A DNA stretch of 64,000 nt from a virus (IMGVR_UViG_3300048606_000077:4380-68379); one strand, 5' to 3'; counted from the stretch's first letter, positions 8,322 to 61,049 are shown. The notes: a model not told the origin generated them from the sequence alone. Translations and numbers: made by a program.

Positions 8322-9389
8322 TTGCACGCCCACAGACAACTCGTCGTCCTCATACCCGCCCGCAACGAAGCCGACCGTATCGCCGCAGCCATCCACGGCC
8401 TCCACGCCCAGACCCACCGCCCAGACACCATCATCGCCGTCGCCAACAACTGCACCGACGCAGACGCCACCCTCAACACGGCACGCGACGCCGGCGCATG
8501 GGTCCTCAACATCCCCGCCTGCCAGGGCAAGAAAGCCGGCGCACTCAACGCGGCCCTCGACGAGGTGCTGCCCGGCCTTCACGATGACGACCTGGTCCTC
8601 GTCCAGGACGCCGACACCGTCCTCAACCCCCGCTTCCTCGAGCACGCAGCCGGAGCCATGGGCCGCCGCGTCGGGGCGGTGGGCGGCATCTTCTACGGCG
8701 AGGCCGGCGGTGGCATCCTCGGCCAGCTTCAGCGCATGGAGTACCAGCGGTACGCGTGGGAGATAGGCCGCACGGGCGGCAAGGCCACCGTCCTCACCGG
8801 CACGGCCAGCCTCTTCAGGGTCCGGGTCCTGCGGCAGATAAGGCAGGCCCGTGTCGACGGCAAGCTCGGCGGCGGCACCTCGTACTACAGCCTCGCCTCG
8901 CTGACCGAGGACGACGAGATCACCAAGGCCGTCAAGACCCTCGGCTACCGCACCATGAGCCCCGCGGCGTGCACCGTCACCACCGAGGTCATGACCAACC
9001 CGCGGGCCCTGTGGAACCAGCGGATGAGGTGGCAGCGCGGCGCCCTGGAGAACCTGCGCGACTACGGCTGGACGCGGGTGACGGCCCCGTACTTCGGCAA
9101 GCAGATCATGATGGGCTGCGGCGCCCTCGCATTCGCCCTGTACCTGCTGTTCCTCGCCCTGCAGCTCACCCTCATCGGGCATGTCGGGGTCTCGCCGTTC
9201 TGGACCTCCATCGGTCTGATCTTCATCGTGGAGAAGGTCGTCTCGGTGCGGCGGGCGGGTTGGCGGTCCGTGCTCCTGGCTCTGGTCATGGTTCCGGAGC
9301 TCATCTACGACGTGTTCCAACACGCGGTTTTCTTCCGGGCGCTGTACGACCTGGCGCGCCGGAAGGAAGAGCGCTGGGTTGCCACCTAA
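8322..9389 (+). CDS. Processive GT2 glycosyltransferase (PgaC/IcaA/NodC/HAS-like synthase)
   Basis: IPARNE, GKKAGALN, QDAD, LQRMEY, LTEDDEIT and QRMRW (QxxRW) motifs; C-terminal TM helices; TTG start with GGGGGA RBS. Confidence 0.9.
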   Translation: MHAHRQLVVLIPARNEADRIAAAIHGLHAQTHRPDTIIAVANNCTDADATLNTARDAGAWVLNIPACQGKKAGALNAALDEVLPGLHDDDLVLVQDADTVLNPRFLEHAAGAMGRRVGAVGGIFYGEAGGGILGQLQRMEYQRYAWEIGRTGGKATVLTGTASLFRVRVLRQIRQARVDGKLGGGTSYYSLASLTEDDEITKAVKTLGYRTMSPAACTVTTEVMTNPRALWNQRMRWQRGALENLRDYGWTRVTAPYFGKQIMMGCGALAFALYLLFLALQLTLIGHVGVSPFWTSIGLIFIVEKVVSVRRAGWRSVLLALVMVPELIYDVFQHAVFFRALYDLARRKEERWVAT

Positions 9390-10197: not shown

Positions 10198-10595
10198 GTA
10201 CACCCCTCCGGCTGCTCACCAATGCCGACGACATCGCCTGGATGGCCGACGGAGCCTGCAACGGCCAGCCCCTCAACACCTTCATCCCCGACGGCATCGA
10301 AACCAAGGCCGGCCTCAACGCCGCCCGCGCATGGTGCGACCCGTGCCCAGTCCGCGCCACCTGCCTCGCCTGGGCCATGCTGAAACGCTGCGACGGCTAC
10401 TGGGGCGGCACCAACACCTACCAACGCCACCAAGCTATGCGCGTACGCACCCGCGCCAAATGCTTCCTCTGCAAAAGCGAAAGCCTCGTAGCCGCCGACC
10501 AGCACGAACTGTGCCTCGCCTGCGGCATGTCGTGGGTCCGTGACGTACGGCTCGAACCGCTGGCCGCTACACCGCTACCGTCGACCGCGGCATAG
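10194..10595 (+). CDS. whiB: WhiB-family regulator with extra C-terminal zinc ribbon
   Basis: W...GAC...F...A...CDPCPVRATCLAWA...GYWGG; then CFLC...CLACG. Confidence 0.85.
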   Translation: MSTPLRLLTNADDIAWMADGACNGQPLNTFIPDGIETKAGLNAARAWCDPCPVRATCLAWAMLKRCDGYWGGTNTYQRHQAMRVRTRAKCFLCKSESLVAADQHELCLACGMSWVRDVRLEPLAATPLPSTAA

Positions 10596-11640
10596 CCTGC
10601 TGCGTCTCGTACGCCCGGCTCCAGGCATCCAACCAACGCCACGCATGATCCTCCAGGCGCAGCTGCGCGGCCACCACGCGCCCGGCATCCGACAACTCCG
10701 CGCGCAGCCCGGCCGAATCACGCAGCCGCTTCAGCTCTCGATACCAAGCACGCGGCCGATCCGCCAGGACGCCGGCACCCATCGCGTGCAGCCGCCGGTA
10801 CTCCGCCCGCGGTGACGCCACCCATGGCACGCCGGCCGCGCACATCTCTTCAATTTTCAACCAGCTCTTCGCGGCGTTGAACTTCGTGTCCGCCAGTGGA
10901 GCGATCCCGATGCCCAACTCGGCGACTGCCCGCGGCCACTCGCCGATCGGCACCCCGCCGCCGGGTGGGTCCTGCGCCAGGCCGAACGCCGCGCCGGCGC
11001 CGGTGGAGTCGCCGCGCATCACGAACTGGGCGCCCTCGTCGACGAGGCGGGCGATCGCGCCGCCCACCACCTCCGGATCGTTGGGGTGGGAGTGGTACGA
11101 CCCGGGCCAGCCGATGACGTCACTGTCTTCGCGGGACAACCCGTAATACGACGACGGCAGGTAGTTGTACAGCACCTGCCCCCGCCCGTGCGAGGCGTAC
11201 ACCGGGAGCAGCGCCGGAGTCGACACCGTCACCAGCGTCGCCGCCCGACACGCAGCGGACAGGTGCCGCCACGAGGTGCGGTTGATCGTCCCGTCCAGGA
11301 GTCGCCTGCCCTCGTTGCGCGGGTGCATTCCGGCCCACGCCGGATTCGACGGGTGCACGGACCTCAGGTCGTCGTCGACATCCACGACGACCGCGATGCC
11401 CTTGGCGCGCAGGATCGGGATGGCGTCGGCCATCCACTGGTGGATGACCCGCTGGAACACCACGACGTCCGCGTCAACGAGGACGTCACGGACGATGTCG
11501 CGTTCCATCACCAGCCGCAGTTTCTGCCCGGGGCCGAGGACTTCGACGTCGTGGCCGGCGGCGTGGAGGAGTTCGCCGGGCCAGATCATGCGGAGGCTTC
11601 CGCACCCTGAGCGGTCGGCTGGGTTGACGATGACCTTCAC
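10567..11640 (-). CDS. GT-B fold glycosyltransferase (GT4-like)
   Basis: GCGSLRMIWP, VVFQR, VDVDDDL, IGIAPLADTKFNAAKSWLKIEEMCAAGVPWVASP. Confidence 0.8.
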   Translation of the reverse strand: MKVIVNPADRSGCGSLRMIWPGELLHAAGHDVEVLGPGQKLRLVMERDIVRDVLVDADVVVFQRVIHQWMADAIPILRAKGIAVVVDVDDDLRSVHPSNPAWAGMHPRNEGRRLLDGTINRTSWRHLSAACRAATLVTVSTPALLPVYASHGRGQVLYNYLPSSYYGLSREDSDVIGWPGSYHSHPNDPEVVGGAIARLVDEGAQFVMRGDSTGAGAAFGLAQDPPGGGVPIGEWPRAVAELGIGIAPLADTKFNAAKSWLKIEEMCAAGVPWVASPRAEYRRLHAMGAGVLADRPRAWYRELKRLRDSAGLRAELSDAGRVVAAQLRLEDHAWRWLDAWSRAYETQQAMPRSTVAV

Positions 11641-13204: not shown

Positions 13205-14254
13205 TCACAGCTGAGACAGCGGAATGCGAACGAAGTCGATGCCCCCGTACGGGCCGTCTGCGCCCGTCTCGTACAGCAGACCCACCTCTGCGTCCAGGAG
13301 CACCATCGACGAGTACGCCGCCGGCAGGCCCGATACCCGGTGCTTCACCTGCCAGGTGACGCCCTGGTCGTCACTGATCCACAGGGCCATCGCGGCGCGC
13401 TCGGAGGGGTGTGCGGGGCCGGAGTGGAGGAGCCTGCCGTCGGGGAGGGCGATGACGGCGCCGTGGACGGTGGGCATGGCCAGGGTTGCCTGCGGCTGGA
13501 AAGGCCCGCTCAGCGCGTGGCCGTCCGCGCTGTAGGTGTCGGCACGGGTGCCGGGCGCGGTGCCGCCCTGGTCGCGGCAGGACAGGTACACGCGACCGTC
13601 CGGCAGTTGCGCGGCGGTGGTTTCGTTCTCGTTGATGTAGCCGTCCGCGATCGAGCCGACATAGCCGAGCGCCCACGTCACGCCGCCGTCGTCGGAGTAG
13701 ATGCCGTGCGCACCGTAGTACTTCGCCTCGGTACCGGTGTCGGTGCCGGCGGGGGTGCGGGTGTGCCAGCACGGCACGACGAGGCGCCCGGAGGCCAGGG
13801 TGACGCCCGCGCCGGGGCCGGTGCCGTAGCCGCGCATCCACGAGGGCCGCACGGCGGCGGTGATCTCCACGGTCGCGGACCAGGTGACGCCGTCGTCCGC
13901 CGAGCGCTGCACGTAGATGCGGCGCGGCCCGGCCTCCCCGGAGCGGATCAGTTCCGAGGTGTCCTGGGCGCGGCTGTAGCAGGACATCAGCAGCACATCA
14001 CCCGACGCCGGGTCGGTCAGGAGGACGGGGCCTGCGGCGGTGTTGGAGCCGTGTCCGAGCGCGACGTACTGGGCGGACCAGGTGGTGCCGCCGTCGGGGG
14101 AGCGGCGGCACACGAGGTCGATGTTGCCGGTGTCGGCGTCACTGTCGACGCGTCCTTCGCAGACGGCGATGAGGGTGCCTGCCGGGGTGCGGGTGAGGGC
14201 GGGGAGGCGGTAGGTGTAGTAGCCGCCGGTTCCGGTAGTGAAGAGAGCTGACAT
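13205..14254 (-). CDS. GH33-type exo-alpha-sialidase family protein
   Basis: YRLP (FRIP) motif, CEGR, four Asp-boxes (SPDGGTTW, SADDGVTW, SDDGGVTW, SDDQGVTW), ENE, AYSS, LLYE. Confidence 0.88.
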   Translation of the reverse strand: MSALFTTGTGGYYTYRLPALTRTPAGTLIAVCEGRVDSDADTGNIDLVCRRSPDGGTTWSAQYVALGHGSNTAAGPVLLTDPASGDVLLMSCYSRAQDTSELIRSGEAGPRRIYVQRSADDGVTWSATVEITAAVRPSWMRGYGTGPGAGVTLASGRLVVPCWHTRTPAGTDTGTEAKYYGAHGIYSDDGGVTWALGYVGSIADGYINENETTAAQLPDGRVYLSCRDQGGTAPGTRADTYSADGHALSGPFQPQATLAMPTVHGAVIALPDGRLLHSGPAHPSERAAMALWISDDQGVTWQVKHRVSGLPAAYSSMVLLDAEVGLLYETGADGPYGGIDFVRIPLSQL

Positions 14255-23842: not shown

Positions 23843-24511
23843 TCACAGCGTGGTCGAGTTGCACGCCGCGGTCGGCGGGGCGACGGTGGTGACGTTCCAC
23901 ACCCAGTGCTCATCGGTGTGAACAGACTCACCGGCGGGCAGCCAGGAGGCGCCGACGAGGGTGTCCCAGGTCGCTCCCGCGCCCCTCGTCTCGGCGATGG
24001 CCTGCAGGGTGGACTTGGCGTTTTCGACGGTGTAGTCACCGAGCTGGGTGGCGCCGACGTTGGGCCACGCGTTGTAGATGTACCGCTGGGCGCCGGTAGC
24101 GTCGCACGCGCCGGATCCGGCGACCTGCTGCCACACCTCCAGGCTGTAGCGGTTGACGGGGTTGCCCTCGGCGACCGCGAAGCCGGTGCCTGTCGCCGGG
24201 GCGCCGGTGCTGAGGGTGCGTGCGTCGATGATGTAGGAGGCGAGCAGTACGTTGACTTCGCACCAGTCGATGGTCAGCCCGAATCGCTTCAGGGTGGGGT
24301 CGTCCTTCTGGTTGACGCACGCCGCGCCGGAGGCGGTGCGCTCGAAGAACTCTTCGCCGTCCTCGTAGTCCGGGGACATCTGTACCTGGACGAAGCCGGC
24401 GGATGAGGCCACGAACCCGGATGCGCCGGTGACGGGGGTGCCGCACGCGTCGAGGGCGACGATCCGCAGGACGGTGCCCTTGATGGGTGTCACGCACGTG
24501 GAAACTGCCAT
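23843..24511 (-). CDS. Major tail protein
   Basis: RIVALDACG.P, GEEFFERTASGAACVN; position after the capsid genes. Confidence 0.75.
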   Translation of the reverse strand: MAVSTCVTPIKGTVLRIVALDACGTPVTGASGFVASSAGFVQVQMSPDYEDGEEFFERTASGAACVNQKDDPTLKRFGLTIDWCEVNVLLASYIIDARTLSTGAPATGTGFAVAEGNPVNRYSLEVWQQVAGSGACDATGAQRYIYNAWPNVGATQLGDYTVENAKSTLQAIAETRGAGATWDTLVGASWLPAGESVHTDEHWVWNVTTVAPPTAACNSTTL

Positions 24512-32052: not shown

Positions 32053-32448
32053 CTACGCCCACTCCTGCGACGCGATCAGCGCACCAACCGCCCACACCGC
32101 CAGCCACACCAACACCGGCACCGGCAGACCCACCACCGCCCACGTCCCCGCCGTCACCCCGCCCGCCAGCCAACCCGACGCACACCACGGACACGACATC
32201 AACTCAGCCAGCCAAAACGGCGACCACCGCGCACGAGTCACATACCGGTGACCCTCATCGTCAATGTCCCGGATCTCCCATTCCTTCCACCGGGTCTGGC
32301 TGTTGTGCTCCGGCTCCGTCAAGGGCCGCCACCCGCCCGCGACCCGATCCCGCAACCACAGCACCGGCGGAAACGTGTCAGCCACAACGAGCCGGGTCAG
32401 CCGGTAGGTAGCCAGCGACATCACGAGCAGCAGCAACCACAGGTCCAT
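32053..32448 (-). CDS. DUF1360-like membrane protein
   Basis: LATYRLTRLVVAD...LAELMSCPWCASGW. Confidence 0.8.
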   Translation of the reverse strand: MDLWLLLLVMSLATYRLTRLVVADTFPPVLWLRDRVAGGWRPLTEPEHNSQTRWKEWEIRDIDDEGHRYVTRARWSPFWLAELMSCPWCASGWLAGGVTAGTWAVVGLPVPVLVWLAVWAVGALIASQEWA

Positions 32449-32454
32449 GCGCGC

Positions 32455-32488
32455 AGCGTAGGCCCGCAGACGACGGCACCCGTTCCGG
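32455..32488 (-). promoter_or_regulatory. Putative late promoter CCGGAA-N22-TACGCT (leaderless)
   Basis: -10-like hexamer 6 nt before the ATG at 32448. Confidence 0.5.
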
Positions 32489-32494
32489 CAACCA

Positions 32495-33915
32495 CTACCG
32501 CCCGCGCCCGCCAACGATCTGCTTCCTGGCCAGATCCCCACCCAGCGAACCCTGGCCCTTCACAATCGCCGACACCAGCCTCATATGCCACGGCCCCCAC
32601 ACCATCCCGTCCAACCGGTCCGGCGACCAACCCAACTCCGGATACCACGTCGCCAACTGGTCCTCCAGCTCCGGAAACGTGCCGGCATGATGCCACCGGC
32701 CCTGAGCACCCAGCGCCGCGACCGGCTGCGCCCGCACGACCTTGCCGTGCGTCGCCAGCACCTTCCGCACCGGGATATCCACCCCGGCCTTCTCCAGCGC
32801 TGTATGGATCACGGCCATCGCTTGGTCACCCCCGTAGTTGACCTCAACGCAGATGTCATGGGCCTCCCAGTCCACGGCGGCCTGGACCGCCCGCTGTCCC
32901 CAGCCCTCCGGCGGCAGGTGACAGGTCCGGTCATCGAGGACGAACCCGTGATGTTGCGGCCGCGGCTGTCCCTGCACGGGCCGCTCGTCCGGATCGGCCG
33001 CGGGGCCGGGCAGCAGGCCTGGCAGCAGCAGCCCCGACTTCGCGGTGACGACGATGCCCTGCTCGCCTGCACCGCCGGATGGGTCCACGCCGACCGTACG
33101 CCGGATCAGGTCCGGCAGATCTTCCAGCCGCATGCGGCCAGCGGCCAACGTCGCGCGCCGCCACAGCGCGTTGCTGACCTCGTCGAGGAGCTTGCCGTAC
33201 AGCTCCTGCTCACCCAGCTCGGTGCTGCCGTAGCTGTCTTCCAGCGCGTCACGGATGTGCACGGGAAGGTACGGATTCTGGTACATCGTCGCGTGCGTGG
33301 TGACCACACCACGGATCTCGCCCTGCATGAGCCGCTTCAGCAGCGGCTTGGGCTTCGGCGTGGTCGACGCCACCCAGTGCGGGCGCGGCCCCGAGCGCAG
33401 GCCGAACCGGAGCTGGTCCCAGCACGCGTCCATGTAGCGCCACGCGGCGAACTCCTCCAGCCAGGCGACGCACGTATTACCGCCCGCTCGGAGCCGCTCG
33501 ACATCCTCCGGACTGTTCGCCCCGTACAACTTGGCCTGGGAGCCGTTGGGCCAGCGCACGACAGTCCCGCCGACGGTGGTGATGGGACCGCTGGCGGTTG
33601 GGTCGTGGGCCTTGATTCCGGAGGGCCCGGAGACGCAGGCGGTCACGGCGTCGCCTTGGGTGGGGGCGATGATGCCGACCCAGTGCGGCACGGGTCCTGG
33701 GAGGCAAGGGGGTCCGGCTACGTGCCGGGCGATGTATTCGGCGCATGCGTCCGTTTTCCCAGCTCCACTAATCGGCCGGCTAGCAGTAGCCAGCCGTACC
33801 AATCACCCCCGGGAGGTACCTGGTGGGGGAGCGGTGTCCAGTGTTTGGTGTCGATGTGGGCGCCGAGCATGGCGGCGGCGCGTTGTGCGATGGCTGCCCG
33901 GTCGTCCGTACTCAT
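32495..33915 (-). pseudogene. terL: Terminase large subunit split by a 5-nt insertion in Walker A
   Basis: Frame 1 ends ...HQVPPGGDWYGWLLLAGR, frame 2 starts GAGKTDACAEY; Walker B WLEE; nuclease VGVDPSG and SPDRLDG; TTAGT inserted at 33767-33771. Confidence 0.85.
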
Positions 33916-33933: not shown

Positions 33934-34497
33934 TCAACGACTGGTGGCGTCCCCGCGGTCCGGGCGGCCGCTGGAGTTGTGCCCACCGTGGTGCCACGTC
34001 CACGTCCGCTCCGGCAGGTGGACGATCTTCGCCCCGGCCGCGACGCACCCATTGACGAAACCCCAGTCCTCCCACGGATCGTGGAAGCCGACCTGCTGCG
34101 CCAGCCCGGTGCGCACCAGGATGGTGATCGTCGTGGAGTTCGGGGCGGCGTCGTCCCAGGGCTTACCGAAGAACATCGGGAACGGGTCCGTGCCGCCCAC
34201 GACCCGGAACCAGGGGTACACGTAGTCCGCACCCGTGGCGGCCGCGCAGGTGAGCAGCTTCTCCACGTGGTCCGGGTCCATCTCATCGTCGGAGTCGAGG
34301 AACGCCGTCCACTCCGTCTCCACCATGGCGAGCCCGTGACTGCGGGTGACGGCAGCGCCCATGCTGTGGACGTCGCGGGCCAGGATGTGATGGACCGAGA
34401 CGGTCTGCGCGCGGACCGATGCGGCGGCGCGCTCCAGCATGCCGTTGCTCTCCCGCGCCGCGTGGAACGGGGTCACCACCGTCACTCCGGGCTTCAC
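33934..34497 (-). CDS. GT2-family glycosyltransferase
   Basis: VTVVTP, AASVRAQT, GAAVTR..GL, WTAFLDSDD, EDW, HLPERTW. Confidence 0.85.
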   Translation of the reverse strand: MKPGVTVVTPFHAARESNGMLERAAASVRAQTVSVHHILARDVHSMGAAVTRSHGLAMVETEWTAFLDSDDEMDPDHVEKLLTCAAATGADYVYPWFRVVGGTDPFPMFFGKPWDDAAPNSTTITILVRTGLAQQVGFHDPWEDWGFVNGCVAAGAKIVHLPERTWTWHHGGHNSSGRPDRGDATSR

Positions 34498-34847
34498 TGC
34501 GGCGCACCCCTCCCGCTGTACCAGGGCAGGGCAAGCCCGTCGTTGGCCGCGCGGGGCACCAGGTGCAGGTGAAGGTGGAACACCGACTGCGTGGCCTCAC
34601 GGCCTCGGCTGGTGATCAGGTTCATCGGGCGGGGCGTCCAGCGCATCAACTGGGCGGCGTGGCGCATGGCATCGGCGGACACCTCGGGGTCGGCGGCGAA
34701 GTCGGGCACGTGCCGTTTCGGAATGACCAGCGTGTGGCCGTCGACGACAGGGTTGAGCGGGACGATCGCGATCACGTCGGACCACTCGTGAACAACGATG
34801 GCGGGCGCGCGACCGGCGACGATCTCGCAGAACGGGCAGGCGTTCAC
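34494..34847 (-). CDS. HIT-family nucleotide hydrolase
   Basis: CPFC, GHTLVIPKRH, QSVFHLHLHLVPR (HxHxH). Confidence 0.9.
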   Translation of the reverse strand: MNACPFCEIVAGRAPAIVVHEWSDVIAIVPLNPVVDGHTLVIPKRHVPDFAADPEVSADAMRHAAQLMRWTPRPMNLITSRGREATQSVFHLHLHLVPRAANDGLALPWYSGRGAPQ

Positions 34848-35284
34848 CGGGGCGTGCCCTTCCAGTGCCCCTCGAAGCCGCCCTGCGTCTCCAGCTCCAG
34901 CGTCGTCCACAGCCGGATGCCGTAGTCCGCGTTCGCCGCGAACAGGCCATCGAAGTAGTGGAACGACTCCGGCACCCAGAAGCTCACGTGGGTGGGGTCG
35001 GCGATGGCGTGCCACGTCCCCGTCATGAACGGCACGATGACCTCGAAAACGCCGCCCGGCTTCAGGACCCGGTGCGCCTCGTTCATGACGTCGATGCGGG
35101 GCTGGCCGGCGGGGATGTGCTCCATCACGTGGCTGGCGCGGATGGCGTCCACGGTGCCGTCTGCGGCGGGCCAGGATCCGTCTTGTGCGAGGCGTTGCCA
35201 GGGGCCGTCGCCGTGTCTGGGGTCCATGTTCGTCCAGCCGGGCTGGACCAGGGTGCCGCCGCCGATCTCGATGCTGGTCATCAC
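34844..35284 (-). CDS. Small class I SAM-dependent methyltransferase
   Basis: IEIGGG motif I, SHVMEHI, EAHRVLKPGG, ADPTH. Confidence 0.85.
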   Translation of the reverse strand: MMTSIEIGGGTLVQPGWTNMDPRHGDGPWQRLAQDGSWPAADGTVDAIRASHVMEHIPAGQPRIDVMNEAHRVLKPGGVFEVIVPFMTGTWHAIADPTHVSFWVPESFHYFDGLFAANADYGIRLWTTLELETQGGFEGHWKGTPR

Positions 35285-35493
35285 ACACGCTCCGGCCAGT
35301 GCCACGTGCGGAAACTGCTGGCCGAGTCATACGGCACGGCGCCGTCGATGGGCACGGGGCCCTGGCCAGGCGGGAAGAGCGTCAGGTTGCACAGCTCGCC
35401 AACACTGGTGATGATCGCTGGCCAGCACACAGGTTCGGGCCCGCTTGGAACGTAGTGGACGATCCTGCCGACGCTCGGTGTCTGCTCGCTCAT
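35281..35493 (-). CDS. Small phage hypothetical protein (70 aa)
   Basis: PSVGRIVHY...PAIIT.V...NL.LF...TWHWP. Confidence 0.7.
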   Translation of the reverse strand: MSEQTPSVGRIVHYVPSGPEPVCWPAIITSVGELCNLTLFPPGQGPVPIDGAVPYDSASSFRTWHWPERV

Positions 35494-36167
35494 CAGTGCC
35501 TCGTGCTTCCTTCGTAGGCCAGCCATCCATTCGCCAGGTGGCTACCGGGCAGCGTGGCAGGGCGCAGCCCTTTCTCGCGTAGGGTAAACGGCTGCGAGAT
35601 CTGGTCTTGAAACGACCATGCGTACGTCTCGGCCAGCCACCGCACACCAAACTCCCGTACGGCCGCCGTGTGACGCCGGGCGATCACCCCGGTCGCCCAC
35701 AGTCCCCAGCCCTCCGGATGCCCAAGCTCGCTGTAGTGGTCGGCCTGCTCCAGCACCGGCTCACCCGCGTACTTCGCCAGCCCCGCGGACTCCTTAGCCT
35801 CCGCGAACAGGCAGTCCCGCCACGGGTGCACGAACTGGGCGATCGGCTCATCCTCCGTGAGCCCGGCCGTCGCCTCGATGGCGAACCGGTCGGAGACGAC
35901 CCGGAATGACGCGTCCACCCACAGCGACACGGGCGCGTCGGTGTAGCGCCACGGCTCGTACTTCGGATGCTTCGCCGCACGGTTCGGATGCACCTCCGGC
36001 CGAGGCTCGCAGATCATCGTCCAGCCCCGCGCCGCCTCCGCATCCGGGAGCGGCGCCCCGTCCGTGACGCACAGCCACTCGACATTCAGCCCGGCCTGCG
36101 GCAGCACCGGCTTCAGATGGTCGTAGGTGTCGTAGATCGCCGTGATCAAGGCGACATCAGCCGTCAC
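35493..36167 (-). CDS. DUF616 (TOD1/MUCI70-like) glycosyltransferase domain protein
   Basis: TAIYDTYD, AKHPK..P, SLWVDAS, HPWRDC.FAEA, QDQIS. Confidence 0.75.
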   Translation of the reverse strand: MTADVALITAIYDTYDHLKPVLPQAGLNVEWLCVTDGAPLPDAEAARGWTMICEPRPEVHPNRAAKHPKYEPWRYTDAPVSLWVDASFRVVSDRFAIEATAGLTEDEPIAQFVHPWRDCLFAEAKESAGLAKYAGEPVLEQADHYSELGHPEGWGLWATGVIARRHTAAVREFGVRWLAETYAWSFQDQISQPFTLREKGLRPATLPGSHLANGWLAYEGSTRH

Positions 36168-36970
36168 CGATACCACCGGACGGCGTCCGCAATGCGGTCC
36201 CAATCGTGCGTCGGCTTCCAATCCAGCCGCTCCCAGCCCTCACCCTCAGCGGCGATCCGCGCCGGCCCCTCACCCGCGCGCATCGGCAGATACTCGACAG
36301 CCGCCTTCGAGCCCGTCACCGCCAGCACATACCGCGCCAACTCATTCACCGTCACCGGCTCACCGGAGCCGGCATCGAACACGACGTCATCGCCGTGACC
36401 GCAGGCGTCGATGAGCATGCGGCCCACATCATCGGCGTGCACCAGGTCCACGACCTGCTCGCCATCGCCCCACACCGGCAACGGCACGCCGGCCCATGCG
36501 GCCCGCGCGAACGTCGGCAGGATCTTCTGCGGATGACCCGGCCCGAACTTCTGCCCCGGCCCGTACGCGTTGAACGCCCGCACATGCGACACCCGTACGC
36601 CGTACGCCAGATGCCACGCCGTCGCCAGCCGCTGCGCGGCCACCTTCGTCGCCGTATACACCGACGGGAACACCGGCGGCATCGTGATCCCCACGTACCC
36701 CGCACCGTTGCGCTCGCACCACCGCAAGACCCGCAACGTCCCCACCACGTTCACATCAACAGCGGTCTCCGGATCATCAAAAAGTTCCGCCGTCCCCAGC
36801 ATCCCCGCCAAATGGACCACGACATCAGCGCCGTCCAGCCCGTCCAACGAGCCGAGAATGTCGTTCCCGTCGGACCGGTCGAACGACCACGCCAGGTGAC
36901 CGGCCGCCTCAGCCGCCGCGATAGCCGCCCTGCCCAGGAACCCCGCCCCGCCCGTTACCGCGATCCTCAT
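36164..36970 (-). CDS. NAD-dependent sugar epimerase/dehydratase
   Basis: TGGAGFLG Rossmann motif, YTATK (YxxxK), RAFNAYGPGQ. Confidence 0.92.
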   Translation of the reverse strand: MRIAVTGGAGFLGRAAIAAAEAAGHLAWSFDRSDGNDILGSLDGLDGADVVVHLAGMLGTAELFDDPETAVDVNVVGTLRVLRWCERNGAGYVGITMPPVFPSVYTATKVAAQRLATAWHLAYGVRVSHVRAFNAYGPGQKFGPGHPQKILPTFARAAWAGVPLPVWGDGEQVVDLVHADDVGRMLIDACGHGDDVVFDAGSGEPVTVNELARYVLAVTGSKAAVEYLPMRAGEGPARIAAEGEGWERLDWKPTHDWDRIADAVRWYR

Positions 36971-36984
36971 ACGCTGCTCTCCGC

Positions 36985-37665
36985 TCACCACGGGGTGCGC
37001 CCCCACTTCGTCTGGAACGTCTGCCGGTCCCGGCCGGCTTGCGCGCCGAGCTCGGGGTGGACGTGCATGTATCCGTTGGGCCGCCGGTGCTCCACGGCGC
37101 ATCCCGGAACGAGGGCCGCCCCGCCGGCCTCGCGTGCCTCCCAGTCCAGCGAGTCGTCCGAGTACCACCACGCCATGGACTCGTCGAGGCGTAGCCGTAT
37201 CTCACCGCGGAGCATGTAGGCGTAGCCGGTGATCCGGTGGAACAGGTTCACCGGCTCGGCCCGCGTCCACACGGTGCCGAAACCGTCGTGCTGGTTCGGG
37301 TATGCAAGGACCGCCGTCGTATTGCGCATCGTGTGGGCCAGGGCGCCGGCCAGGTTCGGCGGGGCGACCACGTCATCGTTGACGACCAGCGTGTTCCACC
37401 GGCCCACGCCGTCGAGGATCATGCGCCGCTCGACGTGGTCGATGCCGAGGTTCCACCAGCGGGAGATGTTCCGCCCGGTGCCGGTGTCATCGACGGTTAC
37501 GGTGCCGGCGGTCCTGCGGCCGCGTAGTTCGCCGTTGGCGACGATGACGATGCCGTCGACCTGGCCGACGAGGGAGGCGATGCAATCTTGCAGGAGGTCA
37601 CGCCCGGCGGAGGGGATGACGGCCCAGGTTGGCGGGATCTCCGCTGTGGCGCTCATGGCGGCCAT
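36985..37665 (-). CDS. GT2-family glycosyltransferase
   Basis: VIPS.GR..L..CIASL, WNLGI, LVVNDDV, DE.MAWWYSDD, VEH. Confidence 0.8.
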   Translation of the reverse strand: MAAMSATAEIPPTWAVIPSAGRDLLQDCIASLVGQVDGIVIVANGELRGRRTAGTVTVDDTGTGRNISRWWNLGIDHVERRMILDGVGRWNTLVVNDDVVAPPNLAGALAHTMRNTTAVLAYPNQHDGFGTVWTRAEPVNLFHRITGYAYMLRGEIRLRLDESMAWWYSDDSLDWEAREAGGAALVPGCAVEHRRPNGYMHVHPELGAQAGRDRQTFQTKWGRTPW

Positions 37666-37748: not shown

Positions 37749-38060
37749 TCAGGCGGCGGGGGTCACGGCGAGGAGGGTGACCTTCAGCTGACCGGTCGTG
37801 GGGGCGGTCGTGAAGTCGAGGCGGGCGCGGTCCTCATCGATCACGGTGACGGCGGCGGCGGCGGTGAGGGCGCCGGTGGATGTGTCGCGGATGACGGGCA
37901 CGAGTTCGAGGGCGTCGAGGTTGTGGGCGAGGGTGTAGCTGAGCGTGACGCCGTCGCCGATGGTGGTGGTGTAGGCGCGGTGTGCGGCGTCGTCACCGAC
38001 GTCGATGGTGGTGCAGACCTCAGCGCCGCTTTCGAGGGTGGTGCAGACCTTGATGGGCAT
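37749..38060 (-). CDS. Thr-rich small beta protein (virion decoration-like)
   Basis: GGGAGA RBS; YTLAHNLD...V.VID..RARLDFTTAPTTGQLKVTL; 19 Thr in 103 aa. Confidence 0.7.
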   Translation of the reverse strand: MPIKVCTTLESGAEVCTTIDVGDDAAHRAYTTTIGDGVTLSYTLAHNLDALELVPVIRDTSTGALTAAAAVTVIDEDRARLDFTTAPTTGQLKVTLLAVTPAA

Positions 38061-38116
38061 GGGGGTGTCTCCCGTGTGGGGCCGGAATGGTCCATTCCAG
38101 TTTGCCACGCGCCTGG

Positions 38117-38587
38117 TTACGCAGAGTCCAACAGGCGTCGCTGCGCCGCACCGAGCGCCGCTACCCGCTGCTCCGAACTCAACCCCAGAACATCCAACGC
38201 CGCCGTCAACGCATCGGCCACCAACTGCCCCTCCAGGTCGCGGTGCCGCTCCAGGACGACACTCAACGACTCCGTGGCGTCGAGGCCGAGCATGCGGGCG
38301 CGGCGTTCGATGATGCGCATGGCGGCGCCGCTGGCTTTGGTGTCGCCGTTGCGGGCGGCTGGGAGGAGGCCGGTGAGCATGAGGTCGAGGCGTTCGAGGT
38401 CGATGAGCGCGGCGTCGGTCTTGCTGGTTTGGGGGATGCTCTCGCGGATTTCGCTGATGATCCGGGAGACGCGCGATTGCGAGATCTCGTAATCTGCGGC
38501 GATTTGTTCCTGTGTGTGGCCGTATAGGTAGGCGCGCCATACTTCGCCGTCGCGGCCGTCGAGTCGTGGTCCGTCACGCTGCGGCAT
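38117..38587 (-). CDS. terS: Terminase small subunit (N-terminal HTH)
   Basis: GHTQEQIAADYEISQSRVSR HTH; ERLD.ML, IIERRARMLGLDA; AGGAGG RBS. Confidence 0.75.
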   Translation of the reverse strand: MPQRDGPRLDGRDGEVWRAYLYGHTQEQIAADYEISQSRVSRIISEIRESIPQTSKTDAALIDLERLDLMLTGLLPAARNGDTKASGAAMRIIERRARMLGLDATESLSVVLERHRDLEGQLVADALTAALDVLGLSSEQRVAALGAAQRRLLDSA

Positions 38588-59516: not shown

Positions 59517-61049
59517 ATGGTCGACGCGACGCGAATCCCTCGAAGCCACGCGGACGAAGCTGCCCGCACCCCTAAGCGCGTCGGCATCTACTGCCGCCTC
59601 AGCTACGCCCCCGACGGCTCCATCGAGAAGGTTGAACGACAGGAAGGCGACTGCCGCGACCTCGCCGGCCGCCTCGGCTGGCCCGTGTCCGAGCAGCACA
59701 TCTTCCGCGACAACTCCCGCTCCGCGTGGCAGCGCAACCGCAAGCGGCCACGCTGGGACGCGATGCTCGCCGCGATCGAAGCAGGCGAGATCGACGCGAT
59801 CATCGTTTACCACGGTGACCGCCTCATCCGGCAGCCGTACGACCTGGAACGGCTGATCGGCATCGCCGACAGCAAGGGCGTCCGGGTCGCGTCGCCTTCC
59901 GGTACCCGCGACCTCGACAGTCCCGACGACCGATTCATCCTCCGCATCGAAGCCGCGCAGGCCTGCCGGGAGTCCGACAACATTTCCCGGCGTGTGAAGC
60001 GCGGCTTTGCCGCCCGCGCCATCCAGGGCCGCACCGCGAGCGGTGGCCGGCGGCCCTTCGGCTTCGGCGTACCCACCGGCGAGACCCGCGAGCGCACCGA
60101 CCAGCAGACCGGCGAAGTGCGGCAAGTCCCGGTGTACGACACGGACCAGCAGGTACCCGAGGAGGCGCGGCTCCTGGCGCAGGCCGCCGAGCGGCTCCTG
60201 GCCGGGCAGACGCAGGCGGGTGTCGTGCGGTGGCTGAACGAGGAGGCCAAGTCGCAGACGACCGAGGGGAATCCGTGGATGGTGAAGACGTTGCGGAATT
60301 TGATGATGTCGCCGCGGATCGCCGGGTTGATCGAGCACGATGGCGATCTGTACGAGGCGGTGTGGGATGAGATCATTGACCGGGAGACTTGGGAAGATCT
60401 GCTCGCCTTGTACAAGTCCAGCAGTGAAGCGCACCTGTATCAGGGCCGCGAGCGCAGGCATTTGCTGTCGGGGATCGCGGAGTGTGTGACGTGTGACAGC
60501 ACGGTGCGGGTGAAGCCGTCGGGTGGCCGGAATCGTAAGACGTCGCGGCTTTACCACTGTTGGGCCCCGGGGTGCCCGCGGCGTGTGTCGCGCAATCAGG
60601 AGCACCTGGACCGGTATATCGAGGGCCGTGTGCTGCGGTTGCTGAGCGACAAGCGGTTCATTGCCGAGTTGCATGCTGACGATGAACAGCCGGGCGTGGC
60701 GGGGGAGATCGCAGCGTTGGAGCGCCGCAAGAGGGAATCGCAGGAGCAGTTGGAGAATCTGGCTGATCACGAGGCGGTTGATCCTGTGCTGGTGGCCCGG
60801 TCGTTGGCGTCGTTCGACCGGAAGATCGTTGCTCTTCGGGCTCAGGTGGCCACGTCGGCGCGGCGCAGGCTGCTGCTGCGGATGGTGGGGATGGGCCGGG
60901 AGGCGTGGGATGCGGAGCCTATCGATGTGCGGGCGGCGACGGTGCAGGCTTTGTTCAGGGTCGTCATCTTGCCGGCGACGTGGCGCGGTCCGGGGTTTGA
61001 TCCGGCGAGTGTGAAGGTGCTGCGTCGGTCCGCGTCCGGGGGAGAGTGA
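59517..61049 (+). CDS. int: Large serine recombinase (integrase)
   Basis: GIYCRLS catalytic Ser, DNSRSAW, RP.W.AML, YHGDRLIR, recombinase domain, Zn ribbon C..C...C....C, coiled coil; TATACT -10 just upstream. Confidence 0.95.
   Translation: MVDATRIPRSHADEAARTPKRVGIYCRLSYAPDGSIEKVERQEGDCRDLAGRLGWPVSEQHIFRDNSRSAWQRNRKRPRWDAMLAAIEAGEIDAIIVYHGDRLIRQPYDLERLIGIADSKGVRVASPSGTRDLDSPDDRFILRIEAAQACRESDNISRRVKRGFAARAIQGRTASGGRRPFGFGVPTGETRERTDQQTGEVRQVPVYDTDQQVPEEARLLAQAAERLLAGQTQAGVVRWLNEEAKSQTTEGNPWMVKTLRNLMMSPRIAGLIEHDGDLYEAVWDEIIDRETWEDLLALYKSSSEAHLYQGRERRHLLSGIAECVTCDSTVRVKPSGGRNRKTSRLYHCWAPGCPRRVSRNQEHLDRYIEGRVLRLLSDKRFIAELHADDEQPGVAGEIAALERRKRESQEQLENLADHEAVDPVLVARSLASFDRKIVALRAQVATSARRRLLLRMVGMGREAWDAEPIDVRAATVQALFRVVILPATWRGPGFDPASVKVLRRSASGGE

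Follow-up and report, generated by a model that had tools for sequence, protein, structure and literature searches.

A conserved glycosyltransferase and methyltransferase cassette in the packaging operon of a temperate Streptomyces phage, with a possible role in virion glycosylation

We analyzed a cassette of seven genes that occupies positions 33934-37665 (minus strand) of a 64,000-nucleotide stretch of viral DNA (hereafter 'the window', corresponding to bases 4380-68379 of the 68,379-bp IMG/VR virus record IMGVR_UViG_3300048606_000077). The cassette is embedded in the late operon, between a gene resembling that of a small terminase subunit (terS-like) and the gene of the large terminase subunit (terL), and encodes three predicted glycosyltransferases (GTs; A_GT, C_TOD1 and G_GT2), a predicted nucleotide-sugar enzyme (B_epi), a predicted S-adenosylmethionine (SAM)-dependent methyltransferase (MTase; E_MT), a small protein (D) and a histidine-triad (HIT) protein (F_HIT). 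From sequence comparison and analogy we estimate a probability of about 0.5 that this late-operon cassette glycosylates the virion with a small methylated glycan. It is analogous to, and not orthologous with, the virion O-glycosylation systems of the mycobacteriophages Che8 and Corndog.

Mechanically called open reading frames (ORFs) are unreliable in such G+C-rich DNA, and gene models were therefore taken from a third-position GC (GC3) frame plot combined with inspection of start codons. Seven genes fill the interval exactly:

37665-36985, minus strand, A_GT, predicted GT-A fold, GT2-like glycosyltransferase, 226 amino acids (aa)
36970-36164, minus strand, B_epi, putative compact nucleoside diphosphate (NDP)-sugar tailoring enzyme of the extended short-chain dehydrogenase/reductase (SDR) type, 268 aa
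36167-35493, minus strand, C_TOD1, DUF616/TOD1-MUCI70-type glycosyltransferase, 224 aa
35493-35281, minus strand, D, small ORF, 70 aa
35281-34844, minus strand, E_MT, predicted minimal class I SAM methyltransferase, 145 aa
34847-34494, minus strand, F_HIT, Hint-branch histidine-triad protein, 117 aa, with a GTG start at 34847
34497-33934, minus strand, G_GT2, short GT2 glycosyltransferase, 187 aa

An initial annotation of this DNA, made from the sequence alone, had given the same coordinates and gene list, and these are correct by the frame plot and start-codon inspection; its title spoke of six genes, and the actual count is seven, as in its own list. The translational coupling that it described is visible as overlaps of 1 or 4 nt at five of the six internal junctions (1-nt TGATG overlaps at C/D and D/E; 4-nt GTGA overlaps at B/C, E/F and F/G). 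The A/B junction consists of a 14-nt spacer with a Shine-Dalgarno sequence (GGAGAG) ahead of B_epi, and a spacer of 18 nt separates the G_GT2 stop from the terL start, so that the genes do run into terL as had been stated, though terL itself is frameshifted (described below). Within the seven-gene block no promoter-like or terminator-like sites were found above chance. A mechanical ORF of 278 aa (34494-35330) was rejected as a single gene because the region holds the methyltransferase in another frame plus the 117-aa HIT protein; its first ~160 residues are Arg/Pro/His-rich junk in the wrong frame.

Relatives of the cassette, comprising viral contigs and prophages, were gathered by searches seeded with G_GT2, with the DUF616 family and with the portal protein, and gene presence was counted in the 34 distinct relatives (including three Streptomyces prophages) whose available sequence spans A_GT to terL. 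C_TOD1, E_MT and G_GT2 are each present in 34/34, as is A_GT, whose presence was the selection criterion; B_epi is found in 32/34, D in 18/34 and F_HIT in 2/34. The gene order is constant, with the terS-like gene on one side of the block and terL on the other in every one of the 34. Judged from these comparisons, the conserved core consists of A_GT, C_TOD1, G_GT2, B_epi and E_MT. This fixed arrangement bears out two points of the initial annotation, namely the neighborhood conservation that it had proposed as a check and its placement of the cassette inside the packaging operon. An unbiased count comes from the search seeded with the portal: of its loci with sufficient upstream DNA, 21 have the cassette, L074 has a sugar cassette of another kind, L073 has a 340-aa SDR alone, and L075 has none.

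Pairwise ratios of nonsynonymous to synonymous substitution (dN/dS) are 0.14-0.22 for B_epi, 0.21-0.38 for E_MT, 0.22-0.36 for G_GT2 and 0.17-0.56 for C_TOD1, with the portal at 0.31-0.39; A_GT is the fastest-evolving cassette gene (0.49-0.61, at 43-57% identity). By these sequence measures the cassette enzymes are soluble (no transmembrane helices were predicted in any of the seven proteins) and under purifying selection.

Domain calls were made with Pfam, PHROGs and NCBIfam profiles, supplemented by fold models for A_GT and C_TOD1, and they uphold the domain identities first assigned. G_GT2 matches the Pfam GT2 family (PF00535; E 1.8e-10, 41.5 bits against a cut-off of 23.3) and, over its full length, phrog_14775 (E 1.2e-42). 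Its D-x-D-D motif is invariant among 22 family members, it is 61% identical to gp107 of the Streptomyces phage KimJongPhill, and it displays weak TuaG-like similarity. Some relatives carry an extra G_GT2 paralog of 196-210 aa (43-46% identity) between G_GT2 and terL (L012:10184-10774, L014:10928-11518, L015:10628-11260 and L018:10928-11518), which implies diversification of the glycan within the lineage. A G_GT2 homolog (40% identity) also occurs in the Arthrobacter jumbo phage Atuin, where gp169-171 (L101:5980-7672) comprise that homolog, a GT and a cytidylyltransferase-like gene. C_TOD1 passes the cut-off for PF04765 (DUF616, TOD1/MUCI70) with 30.2 bits against 21.4, and its model (predicted local distance difference test, pLDDT, of 89) has a GT-A fold with WrtF, GT6 enzymes and WbbM as its nearest neighbors.

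A_GT falls below all Pfam cut-offs. KimJongPhill gp109, to which it is 50% identical, passes the GT2 (PF00535) cut-off, and the N96-x-D98 (N-x-D) motif of A_GT is invariant across the family. The top Foldseek matches of its AlphaFold model (pLDDT 84.5) are all GT-A transferases, with template-modeling (TM) scores of 0.5-0.63 (POMGnT1, TarS, GnT-I, RmlT, ppGalNAc-T, WrtF and AvpGT). The modeled structure thus identifies A_GT as a probable GT-A fold, GT2-like glycosyltransferase. We rejected an assignment as a nucleotidyltransferase: the NTP_transf_3 score is just 17.7 bits, the N-terminal pattern is of the GT2 type, and the structural neighbors are GTs. A_GT occurs in two subtypes that differ in the loop after the second strand, and the window shares the rarer one with two relatives (L007 and L019). 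Its fast evolution and its subtypes could mark an enzyme specific for the acceptor or for the terminal sugar.

E_MT scores above the Pfam cut-offs for Methyltransf_11 (30.5 bits; cut-off 21.2) and Methyltransf_23 (29.5 bits; cut-off 27) and matches phrog_6636 ('methyltransferase') at E 4e-12. Neither its motif I (EIGGG) nor its acidic residue D20 varies within the family, and we assign it from these sequence features to the class I SAM-dependent methyltransferases. It contains no DPPY-type DNA-methyltransferase motif (motif IV), and the best match in a PDB profile search, a D-glucose O-methyltransferase, was not significant (E 0.069). That the methyltransferase belongs to the cassette, as the initial annotation held, agrees with its retention in every relative. 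The 70-aa D protein matches phrog_2293 (E 1.7e-9), is conserved at its ends and variable in its middle, and found only hypothetical phage or actinobacterial proteins in Atlas and PHROGs searches. It is not part of the core.

B_epi matches PF01370 (E 3.9e-30, 105 bits) and phrog_540, 'nucleotide-sugar epimerase' (E 1.8e-43). It carries the features of an extended SDR (an N-terminal GxxGxxG, a catalytic S/T and YxxxK), and its GGAGFxG (G7, G8, G10) and YxxxK (Y105, K109) residues are invariant; the segment linking the catalytic S/T to the Tyr has lost ~16 residues. No NCBIfam equivalog cut-off is reached. An assignment as RmlB was discarded, since the Thr-Asp-Glu dyad is absent (S/T-Met-Pro stands there), the loop is deleted, and TIGR01181 gives 84 bits against a cut-off of 365. 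Many relatives encode further sugar enzymes between the terS-like gene and A_GT: an RmlB-like 340-aa dTDP-glucose 4,6-dehydratase in 23 of them (TIGR01181, E 6.5e-50) and an RmlA-like 220-aa glucose-1-phosphate thymidylyltransferase in eight (TIGR01207, E 1.8e-53). Such loci include L010:5219-6247, L011:6572-7231 and 20+ others. Given these genes upstream of A_GT, B_epi would most plausibly act after the dehydratase, probably as the last step of a deoxysugar branch: a 4-ketoreductase or an epimerase/reductase that would yield a dTDP-6-deoxyhexose. A GalE-type epimerase is less likely in this setting.

Neither an RmlA-like nor an RmlB-like gene was matched anywhere in the 68-kb genome; the core is kept all the same in the ~10 relatives that are without both upstream genes. 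The cassette in the window is therefore a reduced, host-dependent version: this phage genome has probably lost the first deoxysugar steps, and the substrate would have to be supplied by the host. The initial annotation had called the pathway self-contained, which does not hold here: the genome encodes no sugar-activating enzyme, whereas most relatives have RmlA- and/or RmlB-like genes.

The HIT protein is well defined in itself (PF01230, E 2.4e-15, 57 bits, with an intact HxHxHxx triad), and its dN/dS of 0.08 against the homolog in L041 indicates strong purifying selection and therefore a functional protein. Its two occurrences among the relatives (L015 and L041) are in the same slot between E_MT and G_GT2 (34494-34847 in the window), which in relatives L002-L026 varies from a direct overlap of the flanking genes to ~1.1 kb and may hold a 78-aa family, a 190-aa exonuclease-like gene (L009, L012), a 138-aa membrane protein (L005), zinc-ribbon ORFs or the HIT gene. 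Microbacterium phage SadLad and Streptomyces phage JustBecause have HIT homologs too, surrounded by early or hypothetical genes and without GTs nearby. Because the slot holds unrelated small genes elsewhere, F_HIT is, as far as comparative sequence can indicate, a mobile passenger outside the glycosylation pathway. The initial annotation had counted it as a pathway member and named its occurrence independently of the GTs as the pattern that would speak against this; its rarity, the variable slot and the GT-free homologs are that pattern.

Three genes flank the cassette within the packaging operon:

38117-38587, minus strand, terS-like helix-turn-helix (HTH) protein, first gene of the packaging operon, 156 aa, Sigma70_r4-type HTH
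37749-38063, minus strand, 104-aa ORF between the terS-like gene and the cassette, matching phrog_8309, phrog_16122 and phrog_2647
32495-33915, minus strand, terL, Terminase_6N/6C, with its ATG at 33915

The HTH protein matches phrog_645, labelled 'Rnase E' (E 4.7e-15), and its C-terminus is kept upstream of the cassette in relatives. Its small-terminase function is inferred from position, and the gene should be called terS-like at most. Of the earlier statement that the cassette separates the two terminase subunit genes, the part concerning terL stands and the part concerning the small subunit is retained in that weaker form. The 104-aa ORF resembles the C-terminal domain of head-decoration or virion structural proteins (PHROGs, E 2e-7 to 2e-4), was found in two relatives only (L016 and L053), and lies outside the conserved cassette. 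The frame of terL is broken by a 5-nt insertion (TTAGT) inside Walker A (region 33718-33915): in a three-frame comparison with seven relatives, whose genes are uninterrupted, the N-terminus lies in one frame and the sequence from Walker A onward in another. This copy is either an assembly error or packaging-defective.

The genome as a whole has a G+C content of ~70%, a 127-bp terminal overlap, direct terminal repeats according to its IMG/VR record, a serine integrase (59517-61049), and a long minus-strand late operon with the terS-like gene, terL, portal, capsid, tail and tape measure. It is a temperate phage of a Streptomyces-phage lineage. The named sources among the 576 C_TOD1 homologs that were found are all Streptomyces, and syntenic prophages are present in three Streptomyces genomes, which makes the host almost certainly Streptomyces on sequence grounds. 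A genus-wide search, in which the top candidates per genome were scored, detected the DUF616 gene in just one of 401 sampled Streptomyces species genomes, and the prophage is therefore sporadic among the genomes searched. Elsewhere the genome encodes a PgaC/IcaA-like GT2 (8322-9389, plus strand), a 357-aa GT (phrog_7162; 10567-11640, minus strand) that adjoins the lysis genes, and a gene labelled sialidase-like (13205-14254, minus strand) beside the tail genes. In all relatives a DUF1360 membrane protein (phrog_781; 32053-32541) lies between terL and the portal, and thus within the head module. Unusually, the gene of the major tail protein homolog (phrog_792, 222 aa, 23843-24511) stands upstream of that for the head-tail adaptor.

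We propose that B_epi would act on an NDP-sugar supplied by the host and make from it the donor that one of the transferases uses. Its substrate would most likely be dTDP-4-keto-6-deoxyglucose, because most relatives encode RmlA-/RmlB-like enzymes directly upstream. The three GTs would then assemble a short oligosaccharide in the cytoplasm on an acceptor made by the phage, and E_MT would O-methylate one of its sugars. One or more virion proteins are the most probable acceptor, because the genes are coupled into the terS-like/terL packaging operon and encode no membrane segments. One lead to a modified site is the major tail protein homolog, whose C-terminus forms a conserved, Cys-containing Thr/Pro-rich tail; this tail is kept in ~30 relatives and could be an O-glycosylation site.

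Several observations weigh against virion glycosylation by this cassette. Its enzymes include no ortholog of the GT25 protein of Che8 and Corndog (gp110 and gp38) or of their gp109 and gp37. All four acceptors in those phages (capsid and tail tube proteins) end in a C-terminal Gly-Ser or Asp-Ser, and no such ends are seen in the window proteins, where the capsid homolog ends in ...ARV, a 296-aa protein in ...GTA and the tail protein in ...STTL. The Thr/Pro-rich tail is present also in the three relatives without the cassette (L073-L075), and does not co-vary with it. In Atuin the G_GT2 homolog stands among nucleic-acid repair genes and not structural ones, and the family is therefore not restricted to structural operons. 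Finally, with terL frameshifted, this copy may not make virions at all.

The same genes could instead act on the host cell envelope, altering a glycopolymer or its precursor (for example of a teichoic or teichulosonic type) late in infection so that receptors are masked, progeny are kept off debris, or other phages are excluded. Phage GTs that alter host surface glycans are well established (reviews are cited in PMC10955285); the genome is rich in glycan-related genes (the GT at 10567-11640, the PgaC/IcaA-like GT2 at 8322-9389 and the sialidase-like gene of the tail region), and G_GT2 is weakly TuaG-like. We nevertheless judge this unlikely: the seven proteins have no transmembrane segments, the cassette contains no phosphoglycosyl transferase, flippase or polymerase, and surface-conversion genes of temperate phages are usually expressed in lysogeny and situated near the integrase, not coupled to the terminase. 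It is somewhat less probable again that the cassette of the window is a decaying remnant whose glycan is no longer made. The 340-aa SDR and the nucleotidyltransferase-like gene that most relatives possess are absent here, and terL is frameshifted; on the other side, the seven ORFs are intact with invariant catalytic residues, relatives without both upstream genes keep the core, the frameshift could be an assembly error, and Streptomyces hosts are commonly able to supply dTDP-sugars.

Two further acceptors deserve much less weight than virion proteins. Glycosylation and methylation of a small molecule (a host nucleoside or antiphage metabolite), as a detoxification during replication and packaging, is suggested by the presence of AvpGT, a Streptomyces GT2 nucleoside 3'-O-glucosyltransferase (PMC11959488), among the structural neighbors of A_GT. 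That likeness reflects the generic GT-A fold (14% identity, TM score 0.62) and is no better than that to protein- or polymer-acting GTs; three GTs and a deoxysugar branch suggest assembly of an oligosaccharide, and late timing is ill-suited to protecting replication, all of which makes such a role very improbable. We give the smallest probability to glycosylation of phage DNA before or during packaging, despite the position of the cassette directly between two packaging genes and the use of DNA sugar modification as a known phage strategy against restriction. The initial annotation had already thought DNA the less likely acceptor, and a genome-wide search found no thymidylate-synthase/hydroxymethylase (PF00303), C5-methylase (PF00145), TET/JBP (PF12851) or TGT (PF01702) gene in the 68-kb genome, the TET/JBP negative being weak because 14 control genomes also gave nothing with that profile. 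E_MT is without the DNA-methyltransferase motif IV, and a temperate phage with a serine integrase would need to tolerate unmodified prophage DNA.

Returning to glycosylation of the virion, a more specific version would be that widespread temperate Streptomyces phages O-glycosylate their virions with a methylated 6-deoxyhexose oligosaccharide, using an enzyme set that evolved independently of the mycobacteriophage systems, with the Thr/Pro-rich tail as one candidate site. We offer this combination tentatively, as possible and on the doubtful side. If true, it would provide the first assigned role for a bacterial or phage DUF616 (TOD1/MUCI70) protein, and would place virion glycosylation in a soil phage-host system, in which mammalian immune evasion is excluded as the selective force. 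To our knowledge, the demonstrated cases of virion glycosylation are confined to a few mycobacteriophages, where the modification was interpreted as antibody shielding. A cassette that is non-orthologous, conserved and under selection suggests that sugar-coated virions may be more general and may serve an environmental purpose, such as stability, control of adsorption, or evasion of lectin-like defenses of hosts or competitors. It also varies in a modular way: the RmlA/RmlB steps are optional, some relatives have additional GT paralogs, and the first GT evolves fast. Our literature search on virion glycosylation in Streptomyces phages, on the cultured Streptomyces phages KimJongPhill and Zuko, and on DUF616 in WrtF returned nothing specific.

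Comparison with the dTDP-6-deoxyhexose pathways of polysaccharide and antibiotic clusters (RmlA, RmlB, then a reductase or epimerase) reveals the same succession in the relatives, where RmlA-like and RmlB-like genes are followed by B_epi; the window is without the first two steps. Like RmlD, Rmd, GDP-fucose synthase and GalE, B_epi is a member of the extended-SDR superfamily; it differs from the enzymes of these pathways in being ~50-70 residues shorter and in the deleted loop between its catalytic S/T and Tyr.

Among phage systems, Che8, Corndog and Myrna are reported to use GTs of their own to glycosylate capsid and tail tube proteins, Che8 gp110 and Corndog gp38 being essential (PMC12363180). 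Other actinophage papers have already taken GT and methyltransferase genes as signs of virion glycosylation (PMC13313380). Both Che8 (gp108-110) and Corndog (gp35-38) have, like the window with its three GT-A enzymes and E_MT, several small soluble GT-A glycosyltransferases and a SAM methyltransferase domain, and in each case the virion would presumably end up carrying a methylated glycan. The two O-glycosylation systems are attributed to Freeman et al. 2023 (Cell Host Microbe 31:1216), as cited in PMC12363180 and PMC13313380. We checked that Che8 gp108 is a GT2-TylF methyltransferase fusion, that Corndog gp35 is a TylF methyltransferase, and that Corndog gp35-38 lie between gene 34 and the capsid protease. 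Gene 34 is annotated only as hypothetical, and we take it to be a putative portal gene; the Corndog cluster is likewise embedded in a head-morphogenesis operon. Neither a methyltransferase nor a position in the head operon is therefore new among phage glycosylation clusters, and the methyltransferase, which the initial annotation had presented as an addition to known phage systems, is already represented by the TylF-type domains of Che8 and Corndog.

The enzymes themselves are different. Che8 and Corndog use a GT25 (gp110/gp38), a different GT2-like protein (gp109/gp37) and a TylF-type methyltransferase, whereas the window, from a phage of Streptomyces, has a DUF616 GT, two other GT2-like enzymes, a minimal methyltransferase of the Methyltransf_11/23 type and an SDR. 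In BLASTP comparisons with the Che8 and Corndog enzymes, the best A_GT match had an E value of 0.07, C_TOD1 had no match, and G_GT2 matched Che8 gp108 over the GT2 core only (E 1.5e-6). When A_GT was aligned profile to profile (hhalign) with Che8 gp109 and with Corndog gp37, neither comparison reached significance (E 0.055 and 0.15).

A closer parallel is provided by KimJongPhill and Zuko (genus Zukovirus), for which we likewise know of no demonstration of virion glycosylation. Their genomes have no DUF616 GT, no short SDR of the B_epi type and no HIT gene, and the GT near their terminase is larger (332 aa) and putatively of the GT-B type. At the right genome end, a methyltransferase is encoded between the G_GT2 homolog gp107 and the A_GT homolog gp109, and these GT-MTase-GT genes are coupled to KimJongPhill gp110 (L001:7823-8467), a 2-oxoglutarate (2OG)-Fe(II) oxygenase (PF13640, E 2e-16) that may hydroxylate the acceptor or the sugar. 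At the other end, gp4 (RmlB-like), gp5 (a small methyltransferase) and gp6 (a GT) directly precede the terS-like gene and terL; this annotated epimerase-methyltransferase-GT series immediately before the terminase is a further precedent for the methyltransferase, and gp5 begins with the same GxG...GW-N-D pattern as E_MT.

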